From NCBI GenBank assembly GCA_023700845.1, contig JAMPYD010000002.1:1-38607 (forward strand): 38,607 nt of DNA, read 5' to 3'. A model generated the notes under the pieces. It saw only the letters and a program-made list of their open reading frames with translations. It had not been told where the DNA came from and ran no database searches. A program made the translations under genes and the position numbers. The stretch comes from Elusimicrobiota bacterium (lineage in GTDB: Bacteria > Elusimicrobiota > Elusimicrobia > UBA1565 > UBA9628). Below are positions 3,289 through 32,821 of the stretch, piece after piece (within the stretch, counting starts at the first letter, position 1; each line of letters starts with the position of its first letter).

Positions 3289-4587
3289 ATGATCCCCTCC
3301 TCAGCCCTGATTTCGCTGGCGCTGCTCTCCTCCCCGGTTTTCGCCGACGGCATCACGGTTTCCTCCTATACGGCCTCCGCGCTGGCGTCCTCCCCCGAGG
3401 TCCGCTCGGCGCAGGACGCCTACGAAGCCGCCGACGCCGCCCTCAAGGGGCAGGCCGCGGCGATGGCCCTGCCCACGCTCGGATTCTCCTACGTCCAGTA
3501 TCCGTACGGGCACAACCCGCTCGACGCCTACCGCTACGAGCGGGGGGCGTTCGCTCCCCGCCTGGGGCAGGCCGTGACGACGGCGAACTGGAACCTGTTC
3601 AACGGCTTCCAGGACCTGCAGCGCGTCCGCGTCGCCGCGCTCGCTCGCCGCGCGGCCCGCTTCGCGCTCGCGGCGGCCAGGCAGGACCGCGCCTTCGCGG
3701 CTATCTCCGCCTATTACGACCTGAACGCGAAGACCGAACTGCTCGCCGTGGCCCGGAAAAACCTCGAGGATCAGAGGCGGCAATACGAGCAGTCCCTCGA
3801 CCTGTACAAGCACGGGATGAAGAGCCTCGCCGACCTCCTCAAGAGCGAGACGGACTGGCGCTCCTCCGAGCTGCGCATCATCTCCGCAGAGGCGGAGCGC
3901 AAGAGATCCATGGTCGCCTTCAACGTCCTGCTCGACCGCGGCGCCCTCGAAGAGGCCCCGTTGACGGTCGATCTCCAGGCCGGCGCCACGGCCCTGCCGC
4001 TCGTCGACGCCGGCTTCGCCGCCGCGCTCGACGGACGTCCCGAGGTGTCCAAGGCGCGCGAGGAGCTCGAGAGCGCGCGCGTCGCCGTCCAGCAGGCCGT
4101 GAAGGGGATCCTGCCCGACCTCAAGGTGGACGCCGCCTGGACCCGCACGCGCTATCCCGCGTTCGCCGGCGCCGGCTCCTCGATCCCCAATCCGAACCAC
4201 AACATCGGGGTCTCCCTGTCCCTTCCGGTCGGCTTCAACGGCTTCACGCAGGGCTGGGCGATCTCGGCGGCCCGCGCCGAGAAGCGCCGCGCCGAGGCGT
4301 CGCGCGCCGCCGCGGAGCGGACCGTCAAGTCGGAGGTGTACAATGCGTACATCGATCTCGAACGGGTCTCGAGCTCCTACTCCGTCGCGCTCCAGAAGGA
4401 GGAGATCGCCGCGAAGGCGCTCGAGCTGGTGGGCCGGCAGTACCAGCAGGGCGCGGCCGACGCGATCCGCATGAACCAGGCCCAGAACGACTACCTCAAC
4501 GCCCGCGTCGAGCGGGTGCTGGCCCTGCACGACATTTTCATCGACCGCGCCCGCTACAAGCGCGCGGTGGGAGAGCCTCTATGGTGA
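3289..4587 (+). CDS. Outer-membrane efflux protein (TolC/OMF family)
   Basis: 432 aa. Signal peptide MIPSSALISLALLSSPVFADG. Two OEP-type repeats with coiled-coil heptads. First gene of the exporter operon; its stop overlaps the next start (ATGGTGA). Confidence 0.85.
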   Translation: MIPSSALISLALLSSPVFADGITVSSYTASALASSPEVRSAQDAYEAADAALKGQAAAMALPTLGFSYVQYPYGHNPLDAYRYERGAFAPRLGQAVTTANWNLFNGFQDLQRVRVAALARRAARFALAAARQDRAFAAISAYYDLNAKTELLAVARKNLEDQRRQYEQSLDLYKHGMKSLADLLKSETDWRSSELRIISAEAERKRSMVAFNVLLDRGALEEAPLTVDLQAGATALPLVDAGFAAALDGRPEVSKAREELESARVAVQQAVKGILPDLKVDAAWTRTRYPAFAGAGSSIPNPNHNIGVSLSLPVGFNGFTQGWAISAARAEKRRAEASRAAAERTVKSEVYNAYIDLERVSSSYSVALQKEEIAAKALELVGRQYQQGAADAIRMNQAQNDYLNARVERVLALHDIFIDRARYKRAVGEPLW

Positions 4588-5501: not shown

Positions 5502-6154
5502 ATGCCATACACGTTGACGGTCTGACCCGGGTCTATCAGGGCGGATATCAGGCTCTGAGGGGAGTCACCTTCTCCGTTTCCCAGGGTGAATTCACGGCTA
5601 TCATGGGGCCCTCGGGGTGCGGTAAATCGACGTTGCTCAATATCCTCGGCCTCCTCGACCGCCCCACCGGCGGGAAATATCTGCTCGAGGGCGCCGAGAC
5701 CGCCCGCCTCAACGACGCCGAGATCACCGGCCTGCGCCGAGCCCGCATCGGCTTCGTCTTCCAGGCTTTCAATCTCTTGCCCCGCCTCTCGGCCCTGGAA
5801 AACGTCGCTTTGCCCATGGCTTACGCGGGCGCCGGGGTGGATGAGCGCCGCGAGCGCGCCCGGATGCTCTTGGATCGCGTGGGCCTCGGCCGCAAGGCGG
5901 AGAACACCCCGCTGCAGCTCTCCGGCGGCGAGCGCCAGCGCGTCGGCATCGCGCGCGCGCTGGCCAACAAGCCGGCCCTGCTCCTCGCCGACGAGCCCAC
6001 CGGCAACCTGGACTCGAAGTCCTCCGTCGAGATCCTGGCCCTCTTCAAGGAGCTCAACGCCGAGGGCATGACCGTGCTCCTCGTCACCCACGACCCCGCC
6101 ATCGGCGCCGCGGCCGGCCGCGTCATCCGCATCAAGGACGGCGAGCTGGCGTGA
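5498..6154 (+). CDS. ABC transporter ATP-binding protein (MacB/LolD-type, stand-alone NBD)
   Basis: Start trimmed to GTG 5498 (VNAIHVDGLTRVYQGG...), 218 aa. Walker [41 protein letters not shown]. The upstream part of track ORF 4598..6154 is an out-of-frame shadow of the adaptor gene. Confidence 0.92.
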   Translation: MNAIHVDGLTRVYQGGYQALRGVTFSVSQGEFTAIMGPSGCGKSTLLNILGLLDRPTGGKYLLEGAETARLNDAEITGLRRARIGFVFQAFNLLPRLSALENVALPMAYAGAGVDERRERARMLLDRVGLGRKAENTPLQLSGGERQRVGIARALANKPALLLADEPTGNLDSKSSVEILALFKELNAEGMTVLLVTHDPAIGAAAGRVIRIKDGELA

Positions 6155-25103: not shown

Positions 25104-26453
25104 GGCCGCGGCTTCAGTGCGCCAGTAGGCCTGACCCTCGGGCGGCAAGGTGTAGACCGGGTCCAGGTACTCGTAGCGGCGCGTCAACGCGTCCTCGTCG
25201 TCGGCCTCGATGCCGGTGCGGTAGCCCTTGGTCCAGTAGGAGATGCCCTTGACCTTGTCGTAGTCGGCGAGCTGATGGATCCAGCGCTTGCCCACGTACG
25301 GCACGTCGACGGTCACGCGCGGCGTGGCGAAGCCGGGCAGATAGCCCATGATGTCGTGTTGGAGCTTCATGCCCTCGGCGATGGACAGGCGCCAGTGCTC
25401 CGAGTTGGGGATCATGTCGGCCATGTAGAAGTAGTACGGCATGATCTTCGCGTGGTCGAGCAGCATGAAGCACAGCTCGAGCAGGTCCTGGCGCGTCGTG
25501 TTCACGCCGCGCAGCAGCACGCCCTGGTTGCGCACGTCCCGGAAGCCCATCTCGAGCAGCTTGCGCACGGCCTTGCCGACGAGCGGGGTCACCTGTTGGG
25601 CGTGGTTGACGTGCGTGTGCACGGCGATGTCGATGCCGCGGTCCCAGGCGCGCTTGGAGATGCGCTCGAGGGCCTTGAGCACGTCGTCCTGAAGGAAGTG
25701 CTGAGGCAGGCCTTGCAGCCCTTTGGTGGCCAGACGGATGTCCTTGATGTTGGGGATGTCCATCAGCTCCATCAGGAACACCTCGAGCTGGGCGATCGGC
25801 ACGTTGGCCACGTCGCCGCCGGAGACGACCACGTCGCGCACCGAGGGGGTCTTGCGCAGGTACTCGAGCATCGCGGCGTAGCGGTCCTTGGGCTGGCCCT
25901 CGAACTTGTGCTTCTGCACCTGGGGGACGGAGTTGCCGACGAGGTCCATGCGCGTGCAGTGGCCGCAGTACTGCGGGCACGTCGCGATCATCTCGGCGAG
26001 CACCTTGGTCGGATAGCGGTGCGTGAGGCCCTCGCTGGCCCACATCTCGGACTCGTGCAGGCTGTCGCGGCTCGCCTTGGGGTGGTTGGGCCACTCCGTG
26101 TGCCGGTCGGACACGATCGGGATCATGTAGCGGCGAACGGGATCGTTCCGGAGATCCTTCTCGTTCATCGTGTTGAGCATCTGAGGGGGGATGAGCAAAG
26201 ACATCGTCGCCTTCTCGTTCTGGTCCTTGACGATCTCCTCGGCGAGCTCGTCCGTCAGGAACGAGCCGAACGCGTCCTTGAGATCTTTGAGGTTCTTGGC
26301 CGAGTGCTGGCGCTGCCACAGCGCCGACTCCCACTGCTCCTTCGTGACGCCCTTATAGCCCGGCAGGCGCGTCCAATCCGGTTCCTTATACTCCCGCTTG
26401 AGGGGGTACTGGAACGGCTGCCGCGACGCGTCCGCCTTCACTTTCTTGGCCAT
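25092..26453 (-). CDS. kamA: KamA-family radical-SAM aminomutase (lysine 2,3-aminomutase-like)
   Basis: Trimmed to ATG 26453 (MAKKVKADASRQPFQYPLKREY...), 453 aa. Radical-SAM cluster motif CPQYCGHCTR, LTHRYP, VVVSGGD, PYYFYMAD. The symbol is family-level only; substrate specificity (Lys vs Glu) was not determined. Confidence 0.88.
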   Translation of the reverse strand: MAKKVKADASRQPFQYPLKREYKEPDWTRLPGYKGVTKEQWESALWQRQHSAKNLKDLKDAFGSFLTDELAEEIVKDQNEKATMSLLIPPQMLNTMNEKDLRNDPVRRYMIPIVSDRHTEWPNHPKASRDSLHESEMWASEGLTHRYPTKVLAEMIATCPQYCGHCTRMDLVGNSVPQVQKHKFEGQPKDRYAAMLEYLRKTPSVRDVVVSGGDVANVPIAQLEVFLMELMDIPNIKDIRLATKGLQGLPQHFLQDDVLKALERISKRAWDRGIDIAVHTHVNHAQQVTPLVGKAVRKLLEMGFRDVRNQGVLLRGVNTTRQDLLELCFMLLDHAKIMPYYFYMADMIPNSEHWRLSIAEGMKLQHDIMGYLPGFATPRVTVDVPYVGKRWIHQLADYDKVKGISYWTKGYRTGIEADDEDALTRRYEYLDPVYTLPPEGQAYWRTEAAALAR

Positions 26454-26459
26454 GTCCCC

Positions 26460-26465
26460 ATTATA
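26460..26465 (-). promoter_or_regulatory. -10 TATAAT, 6 nt upstream of ATG 26453 (kamA), 5 nt from repeat copy A
   Basis: Minus strand reads ...ctgacaccaa-tttcc-TATAAT-ggggac-ATG. Confidence 0.5.
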
Positions 26466-26470
26466 GGAAA

Positions 26471-26504
26471 TTGGTGTCAGGCCTAACGGTAGTGACAGTA
26501 TTTC
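26471..26504 (-). repeat. 34-bp repeat copy A (inverted relative to copies B and C)
   Basis: ttggtgtcaggcctaacggtagtgacagtatttc. Its reverse complement matches 28131-28164 at 33/34 positions. Confidence 0.9.
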
Positions 26505-26540
26505 GAAGATTGGCATGCAACTTTTTGGGGGGGTCGTTCG

Positions 26541-26546
26541 TATGAT
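26541..26546 (+). promoter_or_regulatory. -10-like TATGAT, 4 nt upstream of ATG 26551 (transposase)
   Basis: tatgat-tggt-ATG. The spacing is shorter than at the other genes, so both the start and the promoter are uncertain. Confidence 0.3.
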
Positions 26547-26550
26547 TGGT

Positions 26551-27321
26551 ATGGGAAGAAGAACCCGGATCCATTTCAACGGCGCCGTCTATCACGTCAT
26601 GGCAAAGGGCGTGGACGGTCGAACCATCTTTGTCGATGATCACGATCGCAGGTTTTTCCTCGAGACGCTTGAACGTATATGCGCGGACTCGGGCGCGGAG
26701 ATCTTCGCCTATTGCCTTATGGGAAATCATTTCCACCTCGCGATCCAGGTCTCTCGCATCCCGCTTTCCGCAATCATGCAGCGGCTCCTCACGGGCTATG
26801 TGACCGCCTTCAATTTCCGACATAACCGAACCGGGCACCTGTTCCAGGCTCGATACCGCTCGAAGCATTGCCTGGACGACGCGCACCTCGCCGTCGTGAT
26901 CAGATACATCCATGAGAATCCGGTGCAAGCGGGACTCGTCACGCGCGCATGCGATTGGCCTTGGTCCAGCGCGGGCGACTACGAGGCGGATGATACGACA
27001 GAAGTGTCGATCCCCGCTGATTTCGATCCTTGGAAAGCCGACGATGAACCCAAGCACGCGCGCCGCTTCATCGAGGATCCGCAGGCCCCCCTCGACGATA
27101 TCGCCATTCGAGTGCAGAAACGAACCGGGGTCACGATCAGAGAAATGCAGTCGGCGGACCGACGAAGAAGTGTCGTGGCCGCGCGGCGGGCACTGACTCA
27201 TGAGGCTGCATGCCAAGGGCACCCTCTCCATGCGATCGCCGCATGGCTGCATACGACCCCGACTTCTGTCACTCGGTATTCCAAGGGCATTTCTGTCATT
27301 GCCGTTAGTCTGGACACCTAA
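26551..27321 (+). CDS. IS200/RAYT-type Y1 (HUH) tyrosine transposase with C-terminal DnaA-C-like HTH domain
   Basis: MGRRTRIHFNGAVYHVMAKG, HUH motif GNHFHLAIQ, catalytic-Tyr region VIRYIHENPV, WPWSS. C-terminal ...RRSVVAARRALTHEAACQGHPLHAIAAWLHTTPTSVTRY resembles the DnaA domain IV HTH. Alternative in-frame starts at 26515 and 26542. Lower GC than the surroundings. Confidence 0.85.
   Translation: MGRRTRIHFNGAVYHVMAKGVDGRTIFVDDHDRRFFLETLERICADSGAEIFAYCLMGNHFHLAIQVSRIPLSAIMQRLLTGYVTAFNFRHNRTGHLFQARYRSKHCLDDAHLAVVIRYIHENPVQAGLVTRACDWPWSSAGDYEADDTTEVSIPADFDPWKADDEPKHARRFIEDPQAPLDDIAIRVQKRTGVTIREMQSADRRRSVVAARRALTHEAACQGHPLHAIAAWLHTTPTSVTRYSKGISVIAVSLDT
27287..27320 (+). repeat. 34-bp repeat copy B (degenerate; overlaps the 3' end of the transposase ORF)
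   Basis: gcatttctgtcattgccgttagtctggacaccta, 26/34 identical to copy C in the same orientation. Confidence 0.65.
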
Positions 27322-27326
27322 TTCTG

Positions 27327-27332
27327 TAGAAT
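27327..27332 (+). promoter_or_regulatory. -10 TAGAAT, 6 nt upstream of ATG 27339 (bdhA), 6 nt from repeat copy B
   Basis: ...ctggacaccta-attctg-TAGAAT-cgcctc-ATG. Confidence 0.5.
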
Positions 27333-27338
27333 CGCCTC

Positions 27339-28121
27339 ATGCTAAAGGGAAAAACTGCGGTGGTGACAGGATCGACGAGCGGAATCGGCTTGGGAGTCGC
27401 CAAAGCGCTGGCGCAGCAAGGCGCCTCGGTGATGATCAACGGGTTCGGCGATGCGAAAGAGATCGAGGCCATAAGGCTCTCGCTCGAAAGGCTTTCCGGG
27501 GCGCAGGCGGCTTATCAGGACGCGGACATGAGCAAGCCGGCCGAGGTCGCAGCGATGATCATGGCCGCCGAGCGGACCTTCGGCAAGGTCGACATCCTGG
27601 TCAACAACGCCGGCATCCAGCACCTGGCGCCTGTCGAGGAGTTCCCGGCCGATAAGTGGGACGCCATCATCGCGATCAACCTGTCTTCGAGCTTCCACAC
27701 CATCCGCGCGGCCCTGCCCGGCATGAAAAAGCGGGGTTGGGGACGCATCGTCAACATCGCCTCGGCGCACGGCCTCGTTGCATCGGTGCACAAGGCCGCC
27801 TATGTCGCCGCCAAGCACGGCCTCATCGGCTTGACCAAGACGGTCGCTCTCGAGACGGCGCCGACCGGCATTACCTGCAACGCGATCTGCCCCGGCTGGG
27901 TGCTGACGCCGTTGGTGCAGAAGCAGATCGACGCGCTAGCGGCCCGCGACCGCATGACCGAGGCCGAGGCGAAGACCAAGCTCCTCGCCGAGAAGCAGCC
28001 CTCGCACGAGTTCGCGACCCCGGATCAGATCGGCGGGATGGTCGTGTTCCTGTGCTCCGACGCCGCCTCGCAGATGCGCGGCGCCGCGCTCACTGTCGAT
28101 GGCGGCTGGACGGCGCAGTAA
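27339..28121 (+). CDS. bdhA: D-3-hydroxybutyrate dehydrogenase (SDR family)
   Basis: 260 aa. TGSTSGIGLGVA cofactor motif, NNAG, catalytic S...YVAAKHG. BdhA-typical C-terminus LLAEKQPSHEFATPDQIGGMVVFLCSDAASQMRGAALTVDGGWTAQ. Confidence 0.92.
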   Translation: MLKGKTAVVTGSTSGIGLGVAKALAQQGASVMINGFGDAKEIEAIRLSLERLSGAQAAYQDADMSKPAEVAAMIMAAERTFGKVDILVNNAGIQHLAPVEEFPADKWDAIIAINLSSSFHTIRAALPGMKKRGWGRIVNIASAHGLVASVHKAAYVAAKHGLIGLTKTVALETAPTGITCNAICPGWVLTPLVQKQIDALAARDRMTEAEAKTKLLAEKQPSHEFATPDQIGGMVVFLCSDAASQMRGAALTVDGGWTAQ

Positions 28122-28130
28122 GGCAGGGCG

Positions 28131-28164
28131 GAAATACTGTCATTACCGTTAGGCCTGACACCAA
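28131..28164 (+). repeat. 34-bp repeat copy C
   Basis: gaaatactgtcattaccgttaggcctgacaccaa. It abuts the stop codon (28165-28167) of the convergent hydrolase gene. Confidence 0.9.
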
Positions 28165-29292
28165 CTATCGGTTCTCGACCCAGGCGACGAGCTCGTCGAA
28201 GGCGGCGTGGGCGCGGGGCATGAGGGGGGTGACGAAGGGGAACATGTCGGCGTTGGTGTCGATGTGGGCGGCGTCGTCCTCGAAGACCGATCGGTGCAGG
28301 TCGGCCTTGCCCTTGGAGCGCACGAGGTCCCGGTAGGCCTCGCCGTGGCCCGCGCAGGGGATCAGGTAGTCGTGCCGGCCGGCGATCGAGATCAGGGGGG
28401 CCTTGAGGTCGCCGGTGTTCTCGAACTCGCGGATGGCGGCCAGGGCGGCGGGGCGGGAGTCGAGGTCGTAATCGGCGACGGGGCCCGCGTACGACGGGTC
28501 GAGGTCGCTGAGGAAGATGCCGAGCGAGGACTCCCAGTACACGAGCTTGTAGAGGTCGGCCAGCGGCTTCCACTTGGCGTCCACGCGGGGGAAGCCGGCG
28601 CGGGCGATCGCGTCCTGGTCCCAGGGCTCCTTGGAGACCGCGCGCAGCAGGGCGGGAAGCTCGCGCAGGAGATTGCCTTTGTCGGCGCGCCACATCACGC
28701 CGGAGATCTCCACCGCGCCGTCCACGAACCCCATCTCGGCGGCGCGGCGCGCGATGAAGCCGCCGTTGGAGAGGCCGATGGCGTAGACGCGCTCGGGGGA
28801 GGAGCCGTGGCGGCGCAGGATGAGCTCTCGCGCCGTTTCCACCAAGGCCTCCAGCCGCGAGGCCCAGCGGCGCACCGAGCTCTCCGGGGTCATGGGCATG
28901 ACCACGGTGTCGCCGTCGAGCAGAGCGCGGCGCACGCCTTTGTCGGTCGCGGCGAAGGCATAGCCTTTGGAGAGGAGGAAGTCGGAGAAATACAGGTCGT
29001 AGGTGCTCTCGTCGGTGATGCCCGAGGCGGCGGCGACGACGAGGCGCCCGTTCCAGTCGCGCGGCACGCGCAGGAGGAAGCGCGCGCGGTTCTCCGGAGG
29101 CAAGGCCCCGGTGATGAGCGTGCCCGGGACGGGCCTGTCGATCTTCGTCCACAGCGCCTTGGGCGGCGCGATGTGAAGGGCGTCCTCGGTGAGGACCCGG
29201 CCCGTGGTGGTCAGGTCGGCGACGTCCGCCTCGACGATCCCCGGCTCGCGGGGGAGGTCCACGCGGAAGGCGTAGGCGCGGGGAAGGCTCAC
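28165..29292 (-). CDS. Alpha/beta-fold serine hydrolase (no obvious signal peptide)
   Basis: 375 aa. GTG start in a GTGA overlap with the upstream hydrolase stop. Nucleophile elbow AIGLSNGGF, late His in AAHID. Possible distant relation to 3-hydroxybutyrate-oligomer hydrolase or tannase-like esterases is inference only. Confidence 0.7.
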   Translation of the reverse strand: MSLPRAYAFRVDLPREPGIVEADVADLTTTGRVLTEDALHIAPPKALWTKIDRPVPGTLITGALPPENRARFLLRVPRDWNGRLVVAAASGITDESTYDLYFSDFLLSKGYAFAATDKGVRRALLDGDTVVMPMTPESSVRRWASRLEALVETARELILRRHGSSPERVYAIGLSNGGFIARRAAEMGFVDGAVEISGVMWRADKGNLLRELPALLRAVSKEPWDQDAIARAGFPRVDAKWKPLADLYKLVYWESSLGIFLSDLDPSYAGPVADYDLDSRPAALAAIREFENTGDLKAPLISIAGRHDYLIPCAGHGEAYRDLVRSKGKADLHRSVFEDDAAHIDTNADMFPFVTPLMPRAHAAFDELVAWVENR

Positions 29293-30728
29293 GGCTTCAG
29301 GATCTTCGCCAGCTCGTCGCGCTTCTTGAGAGGGAAGTAATGGTCTCCGGAGACGATGCGCGCGCGGAACCTCCCGGTCTTGTCGGTCAGGACGGTGCCG
29401 GAGGGCGGAGCCTTCTCGGGGGCCGCGATGCCGAGCCGGTCGAAGAGGACCTTGGCGCTCTCCCAGTTCAGCAGCTTGTCGCCGTCGGCGTGGACGAGCT
29501 CGAGGCGCATATCGAGGTCGTGAATTTTCGCCGCGTCTTCCGGCGAAAATTCAAGACGGAACATGTCGCTCGAGCGGCGCAGCATGGCCTCCTGCCAGCC
29601 CGGGTCTTTCGCGTCGCGCTGGATGTCCTTGATGAAAGCCTTGCGGAGGTGGTCGACCGCCTTGTCCCACGGCTCCTTGAGGTCGGCCAGCATCATGCCG
29701 GCGGCGTCCTTGGAGGCCAGCGCGATGATCTGGCCGCGCTGGAAGCGCCACGTCTCGAGCCAGGCGGCGATCGCGGGGGCGAGGAACGGGTTCATGCGGC
29801 CCGTCGCCTCCCAGAGCTCGGCCGTCGCGTCGCCGGCATTGAGCCAGTCGACGACGGCGCGCGTGGCCTGGCTCATGCGCTCGAAATCGGGGCCGGCCTT
29901 CTTCTCGCTGCCCTCGAAGTGGGTCGTGGCGTGGAGCAGGAACACGCGCGAGCCGGACAGGGCCTTGAGCGCGGCGGCGACGGCGGGCTCGGCGTGGAGC
30001 TGGACCATGCGCTGGAAGACGAGGGTGCCGAAGGAATGCAGGGCGAGCTCGACCTTGCCGCCGGGGGAGTCCTTCGCGGCGATGAGCACGGCGCGCGCGA
30101 GGTCGCGGGCGTCGGCGTCGATGGGGGACTTCGTCGGGAGCCAGGCGGAAGGCGCGTGGCCGCGCGTCCAGAGGAAGAGCTCGGCTCCGGCTGGCTTCTC
30201 CGCGCGGGCGAACAGGGGCTCGAAGCTCTCGGTCAGAGCGAGGCCGCCGGCGTACACGCGCGCCCGGCCGCCGGACGAGCCTTCTCGGGCCTTGTAGTGG
30301 ATCGGGGCCCCGCCGTCGCCCTCGAACTCGCCCAGCGTCCAGCCTTCGCCCGGGGCGCCGGCGCGGCCGCCGTCGAACAAAGCCTTAGCCTCGGCCGCGG
30401 AGTCTTCGAGGGATTTCGAGGGCTTCTCGCTTTTCGCCGCGGCCACCGGCAGCGGCAAAGGCAGAGGCACGGGCAGCGCGGGCAGAGCGGGGACCGCGGT
30501 CGGGAGCATCAGGCGCGGGGCCTCGGCCTTGGCGGGCGCGGAGAGCGAAGGGGCGGTGAGCGACAGGGGCGCTGAGAGGGCCGGAGCGGTGAGCGCCGGG
30601 GCCGCTCCTCCGAGCGTCGGGACTCCGGCGAAGCTTCCAAGGGAGCCGGTCAGGCGCGGGGCGGCGACGACGCCGGCGAAGGTGGGGGGAACGAACGCCA
30701 TCGCGACGGTGAGAAGGATAGTGTTCAT
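29289..30728 (-). CDS. Secreted putative serine hydrolase/esterase with Ala/Pro/Leu/Ser-rich N-terminal linker
   Basis: 479 aa. Signal-like MNTILLTVAMAFVPPTFAG. Repetitive LTAPALSAPLSLTAPSLSAP and PALPALPVPLPLPLP. Lipase-box-like ELALHSFGTL. Confidence 0.62.
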   Translation of the reverse strand: MNTILLTVAMAFVPPTFAGVVAAPRLTGSLGSFAGVPTLGGAAPALTAPALSAPLSLTAPSLSAPAKAEAPRLMLPTAVPALPALPVPLPLPLPVAAAKSEKPSKSLEDSAAEAKALFDGGRAGAPGEGWTLGEFEGDGGAPIHYKAREGSSGGRARVYAGGLALTESFEPLFARAEKPAGAELFLWTRGHAPSAWLPTKSPIDADARDLARAVLIAAKDSPGGKVELALHSFGTLVFQRMVQLHAEPAVAAALKALSGSRVFLLHATTHFEGSEKKAGPDFERMSQATRAVVDWLNAGDATAELWEATGRMNPFLAPAIAAWLETWRFQRGQIIALASKDAAGMMLADLKEPWDKAVDHLRKAFIKDIQRDAKDPGWQEAMLRRSSDMFRLEFSPEDAAKIHDLDMRLELVHADGDKLLNWESAKVLFDRLGIAAPEKAPPSGTVLTDKTGRFRARIVSGDHYFPLKKRDELAKILKP

Positions 30729-30735
30729 TGAGATT

Positions 30736-30741
30736 ATTCTA
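30736..30741 (-). promoter_or_regulatory. -10 TAGAAT, 7 nt upstream of ATG 30728 (secreted hydrolase)
   Basis: Minus strand reads TAGAAT-aatctca-ATG. Confidence 0.4.
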
Positions 30742-30807
30742 GTTCACGCGGCCCCTTTTCCTGTGGGCCGTCCGGCCCCGGGGCGGGCGGCAAAAGGCCT
30801 AGCCATT

Positions 30808-30816
30808 TGATAGACT
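30808..30816 (+). promoter_or_regulatory. Extended -10 TGaTAGACT, 6 nt upstream of ATG 30823 (hbd)
   Basis: tgatagact-cggccc-ATG. Confidence 0.5.
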
Positions 30817-30822
30817 CGGCCC

Positions 30823-31680
30823 ATGGAGATCACCCGCGTCTGCGTCGTCGGCGGCGGCACGATGGGCAACGGCATAGCCCACGTCTTCGCCCAGAAAGGC
30901 TTTTCCGTCACCCTCGTCGAGGCGAAGAAGGAGCTCGCCGACAAGGCCGTGGCGACGATCACGAGGAACATGGACCGTCAGGTCGCCAAGGGCGGCCTGA
31001 CCGCGGCGGACAAGGACGCGGCGCTCGGACGCCTGAAGACCGCGACGTCGATCGCCGAAGCGGCCGGGTTCCAGCTCGCGGTCGAGGCCGTCCCCGAGCG
31101 CCTCGACATCAAGGCCGCGGTGTTCAAGGACCTCGAGGCCCACGGCGCGCCGGGGGCCATCCTCGCGACGAACACCTCCTCTTTGCCGATCACCGATATC
31201 GCGGCGACGCTGAAGGACCCGTCGCGGGTCATCGGCATGCACTTCATGAACCCCGTCCCGGTCATGAAGCTCGTCGAGATCATCCGCGGCAAGAGGACGT
31301 CGGACGCGGCGACCGAGGCGGTCAAGGCGCTCACGGTCAAGCTCGGCAAGATCCCGGCCGTCGCCAACGACTTCCCCGGCTTCGTCTCGAACAGAGTCCT
31401 GATGCCCATGATCAACGAGGCGATCCTCTGCCTTCAAGAGGGCGTCTCGACGAAGGAAGACATCGACACCATCATGAAGCTCGGCATGGCCCACCCGATG
31501 GGCCCCATCGCGCTGGCCGACTACATCGGCCTCGACGTGTGCCTGGCCATCATGGAGGTGCTCGACAAGGGCTTCGGCGGCGTGAAGTACAAGCCGGCGG
31601 AGCTGCTGCGCAAGATGGTCTCCGACGGCAAGCTGGGCGTCAAGTCCGGCGCCGGCTTCTACGAGTACCCCAAGAAATAA
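30823..31680 (+). CDS. hbd: 3-hydroxybutyryl-CoA dehydrogenase
   Basis: 285 aa. VVGGGTMGNGIA Rossmann motif, ATNTSSLPIT, GMHFMNPVPVMKLVEII, PGFVSNR, GMAHPMGP. Confidence 0.92.
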   Translation: MEITRVCVVGGGTMGNGIAHVFAQKGFSVTLVEAKKELADKAVATITRNMDRQVAKGGLTAADKDAALGRLKTATSIAEAAGFQLAVEAVPERLDIKAAVFKDLEAHGAPGAILATNTSSLPITDIAATLKDPSRVIGMHFMNPVPVMKLVEIIRGKRTSDAATEAVKALTVKLGKIPAVANDFPGFVSNRVLMPMINEAILCLQEGVSTKEDIDTIMKLGMAHPMGPIALADYIGLDVCLAIMEVLDKGFGGVKYKPAELLRKMVSDGKLGVKSGAGFYEYPKK

Positions 31681-31681
31681 C

Positions 31682-32821
31682 ATGGATTTCAACTTCACCG
31701 AATCGATGTCGATGCTGCGCGACTCCGCTCGGGAGTTCGCCGAGAAGCGGCTCAAGCCCGGGGCGCTCGAATGGGACGAGCACGAGGCGATCCCGCCCGA
31801 GGTCTACAAGGAAGGCGCCGACCTGGGCTTCTTCGGCCTCTCGGTCCCCGAGGAATTCGGCGGCCTGGGCGTCGACCCTCTGGCCTACGCGGCCGCGATG
31901 GAGGAGCTCGCGCGCGGCTCGGCCTCGTTCCAGGTCTGCGCCACCGTGCACAACTCCTTGGTCTGCGCCGCGATCGCCAAGCACGGCACCGACGCGCAGA
32001 AGAAGAAGTTCCTGCCCAAGCTCGCCTCCGGCGAGTGGATCGGCGCGTACTCCCTGTCCGAGCCCGGCGCGGGCACGGACGCCGGCTCGCTCGCTACGCT
32101 CGCGATCGATGGCGGCGACCATTGGCTCGTCAACGGGACCAAGTCGTGGGTCACCAACGGCGGCTTCGCCACCGTGTTCCTGACCTTCGTGTCCACGAAC
32201 AAGGAGGCGGGCTCGCGCGGCATCACCTGCCTGCTCGTCGAGAAGGGCATGCCCGGCTTCACGGTCGGCAAGAAGGAGAAGAAGATGGGCCTGCGCGCCT
32301 CCGACACGCGCGAGACGAACTTCGTCAACGCGAAGATCCCGAAGGACGCTTTGCTCGGCGGCGTCGGCGGCGGCTTCAAGATCGCGATGAGCCAGCTGGA
32401 TTCAGGCCGCATCGGAATCGCGGCGCAGGCCGTCGGCATCGCCCAGGCCGCGCTCGAGGAGGCGGTCTCCTACGCCAAGCAGCGCAAGCAGTTCGGCAAG
32501 AAGCTCTCCGAGTTCCAGCTCACCCAAGCTAAAATCGCGGACATGGCTACGAACATCGCGGCAGGACGTTTATTGGTATTTCAAGCCGCGAGCCTTCTCT
32601 CTCGCGGCTTGAAATGCACGATGGAGGCCTCGATGGCGAAGTCCTTCGCCTCGCGCATCGCCAACAAGGCCTGCTTCGACGCCGTGCAGATCCACGGCGG
32701 CAACGGGTTCGTACGGGAGTTCCCCGTGGAGCGGTATTACCGCGACGTGCGCGTGACCGAGATCTACGAGGGCACGACCGAGGTCCAGAGCCTCATCGTG
32801 GCGCGCGAGGTCCTCGGATGA
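31682..32821 (+). CDS. Acyl-CoA dehydrogenase (short-chain/butyryl-CoA type)
   Basis: 379 aa. GAYSLSEPGAGTDAGS, QAVGIAQAALEEAVSYAKQRKQFGK, catalytic-Glu region IYEGTTEVQSLIVAR. Confidence 0.93.
   Translation: MDFNFTESMSMLRDSAREFAEKRLKPGALEWDEHEAIPPEVYKEGADLGFFGLSVPEEFGGLGVDPLAYAAAMEELARGSASFQVCATVHNSLVCAAIAKHGTDAQKKKFLPKLASGEWIGAYSLSEPGAGTDAGSLATLAIDGGDHWLVNGTKSWVTNGGFATVFLTFVSTNKEAGSRGITCLLVEKGMPGFTVGKKEKKMGLRASDTRETNFVNAKIPKDALLGGVGGGFKIAMSQLDSGRIGIAAQAVGIAQAALEEAVSYAKQRKQFGKKLSEFQLTQAKIADMATNIAAGRLLVFQAASLLSRGLKCTMEASMAKSFASRIANKACFDAVQIHGGNGFVREFPVERYYRDVRVTEIYEGTTEVQSLIVAREVLG

Follow-up and report, generated by a model that had tools for sequence, protein, structure and literature searches.

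We analysed a stretch of 38,607 nucleotides (hereafter, the window) from an Elusimicrobiota bacterium (contig JAMPYD010000002.1 of assembly GCA_023700845.1). Within it, a transposase gene of the RAYT type and a 3-hydroxybutyrate dehydrogenase gene (bdhA) lie between kamA and a hydrolase gene and are jointly enclosed by 34-nt inverted repeats. Our results indicate that this arrangement is very probably a TIRtron, that is, a RAYT-like gene (TIRYT) with its own long terminal inverted repeats (TIRs), plus a solo TIR located one gene further on, and that the two happen to enclose a resident bdhA rather than forming a mobile cassette. The discrete inserted unit is TIR-TIRYT-TIR, about 850 bp in length (approximately 26471–27323). 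bdhA is a resident gene situated between the right TIR and the solo TIR, outside the element.

Comparative anatomy of the kamA locus

Relatives were gathered from homologue loci and from a metagenome scan with kamA, which gave 75 further loci; the metagenome-assembled genomes (MAGs) concerned are incomplete. At locus L030, whose kamA is 95% identical to that of the window, kamA and bdhA are immediate neighbours, with bdhA oriented as in the window, and neither a TIRYT nor a TIR is present. The 35-nt kamA-bdhA spacer of L030 corresponds to the two flanks of the window joined together (...ATTCTATCAAAA|TCAGTAGAATCCCCTCATG compared with ...ATTATAGGAAAT(850 bp)TCTGTAGAATCGCCTCATG). L030 is a clean empty site for the 850-bp TIR-TIRYT-TIR, bdhA excluded: the insert ends at the middle repeat, there is no obvious target-site duplication and the junction looks seamless. 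At L084 (kamA 84%), the bdhA, hydrolase, orf479 and hbd genes are all present, again with no TIRYT and no TIR. As bdhA occupies the same place and orientation at both of these loci, we consider it resident. L044 also has bdhA without a TIRYT and carries a variant TIR doublet exactly where the TIRYT of other loci is found.

A preliminary description of this DNA had left two options, a repeat-bounded mobilisable cassette or a bdhA trapped between repeat copies. It is the latter that the comparison supports. Relatives devoid of the transposase (L030, L084, L044) already carry bdhA in the same position and orientation, the empty site of L030 excludes bdhA, and the enclosed content varies. In the case of L034 and L103, the TIRtron adjoins kamA and there is neither bdhA nor hydrolase gene. 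At L029, about 1.2 kb of additional DNA, probably a gene on the opposite strand, separates bdhA from the outer TIR, which still abuts the hydrolase stop codon. At L035 (2950–3870) the TIRYT is gone: the left TIR with its leader runs straight into the sequence upstream of bdhA, and within that bdhA there is a gap of some 100 nt. At L038 (1050–1980), bdhA is inverted, with its ATG overlapping the hydrolase TGA, and a TIR-end remnant is kept beside kamA. Together with L031, discussed below, the last two mark the kamA-hbd interval as a rearrangement hot spot among close relatives. All 12 of the 12 bdhA orthologues found were at the kamA locus.

In the window, the left TIR (26471–26504, plus strand) is the outer-left arm and pairs at 33 of 34 positions (97% complementarity) with the solo TIR (28131–28164, minus strand), as had been described. 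With up to three mismatches allowed, the 34-mer occurs in the 38.6-kb window only at these two arms, with none expected in shuffled sequences. The degenerate third copy noticed earlier is the right TIR of the TIRtron (27287–27320, minus strand; 26/34). Aligned over 27286–27318, it is 79% identical to the right arm and shares its orientation, and it overlaps the final 11 codons and the stop codon of the TIRYT. The transposase is therefore bracketed by inverted copies in the manner of RAYT genes, as the preliminary description had put it. An nhmmer profile of 58 related copies recovered the same three TIRs in the window and no others.

The 30-nt core of the left TIR, GGTGTCAGGCCTAACGGTAGTGACAGTATT, begins at 26473 and is identical at the orthologous loci L001, L003 and L029. 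The left TIR is separated from the kamA ATG by 17 nt. On its other side, the earliest possible start of the TIRYT open reading frame follows after 10 nt (ORF; 26515–27321, plus strand; 268 aa as the maximal ORF, with alternative starts at 26542 and 26551). bdhA (27339–28121, plus strand) is complete, matching TIGR01963 with 359 bits against a cut-off of 307. bdhA and the hydrolase gene converge on a 43-nt spacer, in which the solo TIR directly adjoins the stop codon of the hydrolase; this TIR is oriented like the right TIR and inverted relative to the left one. The exact fit of the enclosed stretch to the kamA-hydrolase gap, pointed out earlier, thus holds. L030 and L044 have a terminator-like hairpin in the bdhA-hydrolase spacer, where the window has the solo TIR.

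The gene order kamA(-)/TIRYT(+)/bdhA(+)/hydrolase(-)/orf479(-)/hbd(+)/acyl-CoA dehydrogenase recurs at L001, L002, L003/L004 and L015+L010, all of which keep the three TIR copies; those of L003 are identical to one another and to the window at 31/31 positions. Compared with the window, the neighbouring proteins at these loci are 86–99% identical, whereas the TIRYT is merely 65–90% identical. The kamA/TIRYT/bdhA/hydrolase synteny extends to L028, L029 and L096, and TIRs of 30–38 nt flank the TIRYT in the window and at L001–L003, L015, L029, L034 and L106.

Two of these loci carry strongly divergent alleles. The TIRYT is 53% identical to that of the window at L028 (kamA 97%) and 49% identical at L096, and at both loci all of the TIR positions are taken by a variant particular to that locus, so that TIR type and TIRYT allele vary together. 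In the alignment of the window with L028, identity falls to 48–68% only between the left and the middle TIR, with kamA, hydrolase and hbd at 92–95% and bdhA at about 90%. In total, a TIRYT occupies this site in at least nine related genomes, and each scanned MAG, incomplete as these are, yielded a single TIRYT-spaced TIR pair. TIRYT alleles of 49–65% identity are found at the site in genomes whose kamA genes are 93–97% identical, which argues for allele replacement.

Around bdhA (28165–32821) we observed a hydrolase with weak tannase/feruloyl-esterase and polyhydroxyalkanoate-depolymerase matches, an unknown 479-aa protein (orf479), hbd, a 3-hydroxybutyryl-CoA dehydrogenase, and a further ORF (31682–32821). 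This last ORF sits where L002 and L003 have an acyl-CoA dehydrogenase, and the L002 neighbourhood also includes a CoA-transferase. bdhA would fit such neighbours functionally, in a catabolic cluster of the 3-hydroxybutyrate/polyhydroxybutyrate type. An Rfam scan of 26000–28600 returned only a chance-level match inside bdhA. A consensus scan for promoters and terminators found no sigma-70-like promoter, and its terminator matches were at chance level, with none at the TIRs.

The TIRYT protein and its repeat family

The ORF is a RAYT-like TIRYT of TnpA_REP subclass 2.1. We base this assignment on its matches to Pfam Y1_Tnp (E 1.8e-12), which agrees with the RAYT-type HUH/Y1 motifs quoted in the preliminary description, and to the NCBIfam family REP_Tyr_transpos ('REP-associated tyrosine transposase'), as well as on its best fold match and on the names of its homologues. 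A search with the TIRYT returned 719 relatives, the named ones being 'REP element-mobilizing transposase RayT' (JGI) or 'transposase [Elusimicrobiota]'. For a profile of 35 homologues, the sole significant match in the PDB was the Escherichia coli TnpA_REP (4ER8). An AlphaFold model (predicted local distance difference test, pLDDT, 86) likewise had 4er8_A as its top PDB fold match (E 8.5e-8, TM(target) 0.77), ahead of the IS200, IS608 and ISDra2 transposases (E 6e-5 to 1e-3). The HUH motif (HFH, 26728–26736), the catalytic tyrosine (in RYIHENPV, 26905–26907) and some 30 further positions are invariant in the 35 homologues, down to 48% identity, and the TIRYT of the window keeps every family-invariant residue. 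No tnpB-like ORF appears beside the TIRYT in the ORF list of the window.

The C-terminal domain (27091–27285) had been described as a DnaA-domain-IV-like helix-turn-helix (HTH). Its helical nature stands: the model has five predicted helices, H184–248, with pLDDT mostly above 90. The similarity to DnaA is sub-threshold. The best Pfam matches are Bac_DnaA_C (E 1e-4 to 6e-3; 17–22 bits, where the cut-off is 31.5) and HTH_23, none of them reaching its gathering cut-off, and the PDB profile search gave a weak generic HTH and no DnaA. A true DnaA domain IV was consequently rejected, and the C-terminus is an HTH that is DnaA_C-like at best.

The G+C content at third codon positions (GC3) of the TIRYT is 0.66 in the window, where bdhA has 0.87 and the other 27 ORFs have 0.84–0.98. 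The lower GC and GC3 previously ascribed to the whole enclosed unit therefore apply to the TIRYT and not to bdhA, which lies within the range of the window. Every TIRYT allele (window, L001, L002, L003, L015, L028, L029) has a GC3 of 0.60–0.67, with neighbours at 0.90–0.97. Being stable across relatives, this low GC3 is not a sign of recent arrival. A recent horizontal import of the 1.7-kb patch was rejected, since all TIRYT alleles share the same GC3 and that of bdhA is ordinary; the arrangement also predates divergence at synonymous distances (dS) of 0.3–0.5. Candidate causes of the GC3 gap are frequent exchange with lower-GC relatives and selection for low expression. The TIRYT is under purifying selection: its ORF is intact at all loci examined, and dN/dS against orthologues is 0.15–0.20, which led us to reject a decaying pseudogene.

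The 34-mer belongs to a dispersed REPIN-like TIR family with no special tie to bdhA. For the census, the 24-mer GGTGTCAGGCCTAACGGTARTGAC was scanned in one genome per species, after which mismatches were allowed. Four Elusimicrobia MAGs contained the exact 24-mer, at 23 loci of which one is a duplicate; with mismatches, the four contain at least 24, 13, 4 and 2 copies, i.e., at least 43 in total, intergenic and without any link to bdhA, which does not agree with the repeat being the boundary of a bdhA cassette. Head-to-head doublets of 65–88 bp, in which two 30-nt cores face each other across a spacer of 5–28 nt, make up 16 of the loci. By a crude ORF call, the doublets are all located between ORFs, in every relative gene orientation and often 1–45 nt from a gene end. 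No target-site duplications were seen at the doublets, just an A/T-rich, roughly symmetric extension of the TIR. In three pairs (L007 and L025, L008 and L009, L005 and L022), doublets occupy apparently orthologous sites with shared flanks, and their spacers differ in length and sequence.

Over 58 copies, unit positions 1–30 are nearly invariant, with A/T-rich sequence on the outside. Genomes in which the adjacent genes differ by a dS of 0.3–0.5, and in which the intergenic bases next to the repeat have diverged, still share a 100% identical 30-nt core; this points to constraint or homogenisation. As single-stranded DNA, the doublets form hairpins of 32–33 bp (-38 to -40 kcal/mol, z about -14 to -15). 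A single unit has an interrupted stem of 5+3 bp (-4 kcal/mol, z -2). The outer motif GGTGTCAG is invariant in the 58 copies and common to the allele types A and C and to P0049, a paralogue introduced below; type B has GGTGCCAG instead. At unit positions 17–20 (26489–26492 in the window), GTAG or GTAA precedes TGACAGTATT. The inner stem beside the loop of a doublet is built from this stretch, which recalls GTAG-tagged REP hairpins.

Some further observations concern the repeats and the protein tails that they encode. In relatives, the right TIR is intact and itself encodes the end of the TIRYT, about 10 codons plus the stop, with the conserved consensus tail NTVTTVRPDT. Across homologues of about 50% identity, the TIR end GGCCTGACACC is read in two frames, with tails ending in RPDT or GLTP. 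The B-type TIR (GGTGCCAGGCCTACCG..TTGCG) of L028 is arranged in tandem, with three direct copies ahead of the TIRYT and two copies beyond bdhA (5900–5985 and 4215–4280). At L106:4943–5768 (ENA ERZ27253378), we observed a TIRYT paralogue, P0049, with 51% identity, at an unrelated locus between response-regulator genes and a peptidyl-prolyl isomerase gene; it has its own 27-nt TIRs (GTGTCAGGCTTGCCGGATTGCAGTGTT) at equivalent relative positions, and the kamA-locus TIRYT P0012 is found in the same metagenome assembly.

A second gene enclosed by TIRs was found elsewhere. At L023:6947–7451 (MAG NC_groundwater_611), the conserved gene of a 114-aa MazG-like pyrophosphohydrolase lies inside nested inverted TIR pairs, B-type outside A-type on both sides. 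Its orthologue in a different MAG (L112:2939–3381) is bracketed by another TIR variant, GGTGTCAGGCATTCCGGTATTTTCAG. In a more distant relative (L113:3001–3351), the MazG-like gene has no TIRs and is inverted relative to the same DUF4862 and tetratricopeptide-repeat neighbours. Upstream of the gene at L113 (2913–2958; also at L114 and L115) there is a perfect 42-nt palindrome, AGTTATCCACAAACTTATCTCGAGATAAGTTTGTGGATAACT, which contains two copies of the DnaA-box consensus TTATCCACA and occurs only at the MazG-like locus among the 115 fetched loci. The DnaA boxes are curious beside the DnaA_C-like HTH of the TIRYTs.

Recombination at the locus and competing explanations

The history of bdhA was compared with that of its surroundings by dS and by three-taxon site patterns. 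Against L002, which has the same TIRYT type, the dS of bdhA is about that of the flanks. Against L003, L029 and L028 it is 1.5–2.2 times that of the flanks, with the value of 2.2 for L028, and it is similarly raised against the TIRYT-less L030, L044 and L084. Among the site patterns of bdhA, 43 join the window with L002, 28 join L002 with L028 and 23 join the window with L028. For the four flanking genes summed (kamA, hydrolase, orf479 and hbd), the respective counts are 162, 195 and 302 (chi-square about 26, calculated by hand from the site-pattern counts). At a finer scale, the whole locus, including kamA, is a mosaic of 200–400-nt patches. Its strongest block comprises the last ~250 nt of bdhA and the solo TIR, with a sharp end at the hydrolase stop. 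The bdhA patterns can be read as homologous-recombination tracts that carry the TIR type plus adjacent sequence. Transfer of TIRYT and bdhA as a block, considered because of the dS values and the three-taxon patterns, was not adopted, since the mosaic covers the whole locus and the divergence of the TIRYT is far deeper: between the window and L028, the bdhA proteins are 98.5% identical with a dS of 0.55, whereas the TIRYTs share about 53–54% of their amino acids and their synonymous sites are saturated. This far deeper divergence, and the presence of bdhA where the element is absent, argue against composite transposition. For the polarity of gains and losses, a neighbour-joining tree of kamA served as a guide only, as it has no bootstrap and is confounded by recombination.

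Several observations weigh against a TIRtron with a chance neighbour, and some of them would favour a composite cassette, in which bdhA would be metabolic cargo and the Y1 enzyme would move or exchange the entire 1.7-kb stretch bounded by the two intact outer TIRs. The TIRtron's own right TIR is decayed in this genome (8 mismatches), and the outer pair is the best conserved (33/34). The window falls with L002/C5 in bdhA, as it does in the TIRYT, and with L028 in the flanks; the switch at the solo TIR is sharp, and the dS of bdhA is raised against L028. At L031 (kamA 95%; 5870–6010), kamA lies directly beside the hydrolase gene, with TIRYT and bdhA missing together, and the MazG-like gene of related MAGs is likewise enclosed by inverted TIR pairs. 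Three more points concern the family assignment and the proposed activity. The REP_Tyr_transpos score of 78.2 bits is just below the cut-off of 80. A lone TIR is a poor hairpin, unlike classical REPs, and its mode of recognition may differ. Cleavage of the TIRs by the TIRYT is proposed by analogy. Finally, the TIRs of the source genome are known from the window alone, with 3 copies in 38.6 kb; look-ups of the exact bdhA and hydrolase proteins of the window gave no entry.

Even so, we regard a composite cassette as most improbable. L030, L084 and L029 largely refute it: bdhA keeps its place and orientation without TIRYT or TIR, the insert missing from L030 is 850 bp long and excludes bdhA, and L029 holds its additional ~1.2 kb within the supposed unit. 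The TIRtrons of L034 and L103 are without bdhA. The divergence left by allele replacement ends at the middle TIR, with bdhA at a dS of 0.55 next to a saturated TIRYT. The block was never seen away from kamA, where all of the bdhA orthologues were found, and a mosaic that includes kamA is what ordinary homologous recombination would give. The kamA-hydrolase junction of L031 bears no trace of a TIR and the hydrolase there is, at 76%, unusually divergent, so that L031 cannot serve as an example of precise excision. As for the MazG-like gene, it keeps the same neighbours in all genomes examined.

Two other explanations concern the enzyme itself. The Y1-HTH protein might be a domesticated regulator that no longer moves DNA and binds the TIRs as operators, for regulation or insulation of bdhA and kamA, with the doublets serving as sites or terminators elsewhere. 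The C-terminal HTH is predicted to be well folded, the left TIR occupies the 61-nt control region from which kamA and the TIRYT diverge, the solo TIR stands in place of the terminator-like hairpin of L030 and L044, the doublets are strong hairpins near gene ends, and the TIRYT is apparently single-copy, syntenic and under purifying selection. We nevertheless find this very unlikely. That the HUH motif and the catalytic tyrosine do not vary in any of the 35 homologues, some as low as 48% in identity, speaks for nuclease chemistry having been retained. The doublets lie between genes of all orientations and not at one promoter class, the TIRs showed neither a sigma-70-like promoter nor an intrinsic terminator in the scan, and the turnover of TIR variants with TIRYT alleles, the arrays of L028 and the nested pairs of L023 resemble the dynamics of an element. 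A regulatory side-role could coexist with a TIRtron. Alternatively, the 850-bp unit might be an ordinary autonomous insertion sequence with TIRs, active and moving horizontally, its doublets being internally deleted miniature inverted-repeat transposable elements (MITEs). The discrete insert with its clean empty site, the paralogue P0049 with related TIRs at another locus, the divergent alleles at one site, a TIRYT GC3 persistently below that of the host and the TIR doublet of L044 exactly at the TIRYT position would all fit. This explanation is extremely unlikely given the single TIRYT-spaced TIR pair per MAG in the scan, the occupation of one site in at least nine related genomes, and doublet spacers that, at 5–28 nt, are unrelated to the internal ends of the TIRtron. 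Moreover, several doublets are apparently at orthologous sites in different MAGs, and recombination in near-identical flanks explains the replacement of alleles. The difference between an ordinary insertion sequence and a TIRtron is one of degree, namely of how domesticated the element is.

Known systems, a possible mechanism and implications

The names TIRYT and TIRtron were introduced by Di Nocera, De Gregorio and Rocco in 2013 for RAYT-like genes with long terminal inverted repeats (PMC3733652). The TIRtrons described there have an outer GGGGWSAS motif in most TIRs, which sometimes overlap the 3' end of the gene, and their TIR families are moderately abundant, occurring as singles, dimers or groups, which holds for only some of the TIRtrons (PMC3733652). 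Quentin, Siguier, Chandler and Fichant (2018) classified TIRYTs as TnpA_REP subclass 2.1 and described subclass 2.1.2 as having a C-terminal Bac_DnaA_C/HTH_23/HTH_28-like domain, the similarity being weak in their description as well; repeats near subclass 2.1 genes were not found (PMC6006769). The locus studied here shares with this class an HUH/Y1 protein homologous to RAYTs, which exceeds the classical ones in length and has an HTH at its C-terminus; this brings it especially close to subclass 2.1.2. It also shares long inverted repeats that are not self-folding, a 3' TIR that overlaps the gene end ('3'ov') and a dispersed repeat family. It differs in that the outer motif, similar to GGGGWSAS, is off by one position (7/8), the repeats are clear and dispersed, and the host is an uncultivated member of Elusimicrobiota. 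That phylum has no mention in PMC6006769 and, as far as we have seen, is not among the described TIRYT examples. A further difference is the comparative evidence available here, i.e., an empty site, the co-replacement of alleles and TIRs, and TIR-associated deletion and inversion.

A classical REP carries a 5' GTAG tag on an imperfect palindrome of 20–40 nt.

RAYT/REPIN systems and REPtrons (Nunvar 2010; Bertels and Rainey 2011, PMC3116915; the 4ER8 structure, PMC3479197; Corneloup 2021, PMC8266576) resemble the kamA locus in their locus-fixed Y1 gene (here apparently single-copy) with inverted cognate repeats, in intergenic repeats that are mostly inverted hairpin doublets and in a repeat type that co-varies with the enzyme; the best structural match is also TnpA_REP. 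Unlike in those systems, here no GTAG tag precedes the stem (GTAR is inside the unit), the single unit is not a good palindrome, the enzyme has an extra HTH, the copies number tens and not hundreds, and the doublet spacers are not conserved. With elements of the IS200/IS605 family (IS608, ISDra2), the locus has in common the HUH/Y1 fold and a seamless-looking empty site, as in peel-and-paste transposition. However, those elements lack TIRs and rely on subterminal hairpins, mostly occur in several copies and frequently include tnpB, and the kamA locus shows none of these traits. The likeness to composite transposons and MITE-bounded passengers is that bdhA lies between two inverted, transposase-recognised repeats. 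In contrast to such passengers, bdhA is a resident gene that keeps its synteny in relatives devoid of the repeats; the block as such was not seen at any other site, and what it encloses varies (L029, L034, L035).

By analogy with TnpA_REP (PMC3479197, PMC8266576) and IS200/IS605, the TIRYT would recognise its cognate TIR, cleave it and rejoin single strands. The substrate may be the long hairpin of TIR doublets on single-stranded DNA, probably at replication forks, and the HTH might contribute binding to duplex DNA or targeting, a role that has been proposed for subclass 2.1 (PMC6006769). In this way, intergenic TIRs, single or in doublets, would be propagated and maintained, and excision would be seamless, leaving no target duplication. 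Inverted TIR copies may additionally serve as substrates for local deletion and inversion. The TIRYT gene itself would not become multi-copy; it would be inherited with the locus and swapped among related lineages, together with matching TIR variants, by homologous recombination.

A rather unlikely extension of this scheme is that the kamA-proximal TIRtron acts as a replaceable 'type' locus. In such a case, TIRYT alleles of 49–65% identity would succeed one another while all TIRs, including the solo copy, switch with them; the TIRs would drive deletion, inversion and the bracketing of bdhA and of the MazG-like gene, and the switching of TIRs might even be enzyme-driven.

In our opinion, the analysis removes a tempting false lead, that of a Y1/RAYT element with metabolic cargo. 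The current understanding of what TIRtron-type elements are is not changed. The kamA locus provides a clean example of the little-studied TIRYT/TIRtron class, now in the uncultivated phylum Elusimicrobiota. It offers an exact empty site and at least three enzyme/TIR specificity types (A, B and C) at one site, as well as dispersed cognate doublets and TIR-associated deletion and inversion variants. Such material lends itself to in vitro assays of cleavage and strand transfer and to a study of enzyme-repeat co-evolution. If the enzyme itself were to switch TIRs, with cognate repeats overwriting non-cognate ones, and recombination tracts were not responsible, this would be a new RAYT-type activity, and the locus would provide a natural system in which to read TIRYT-TIR specificity and the role of the HTH.

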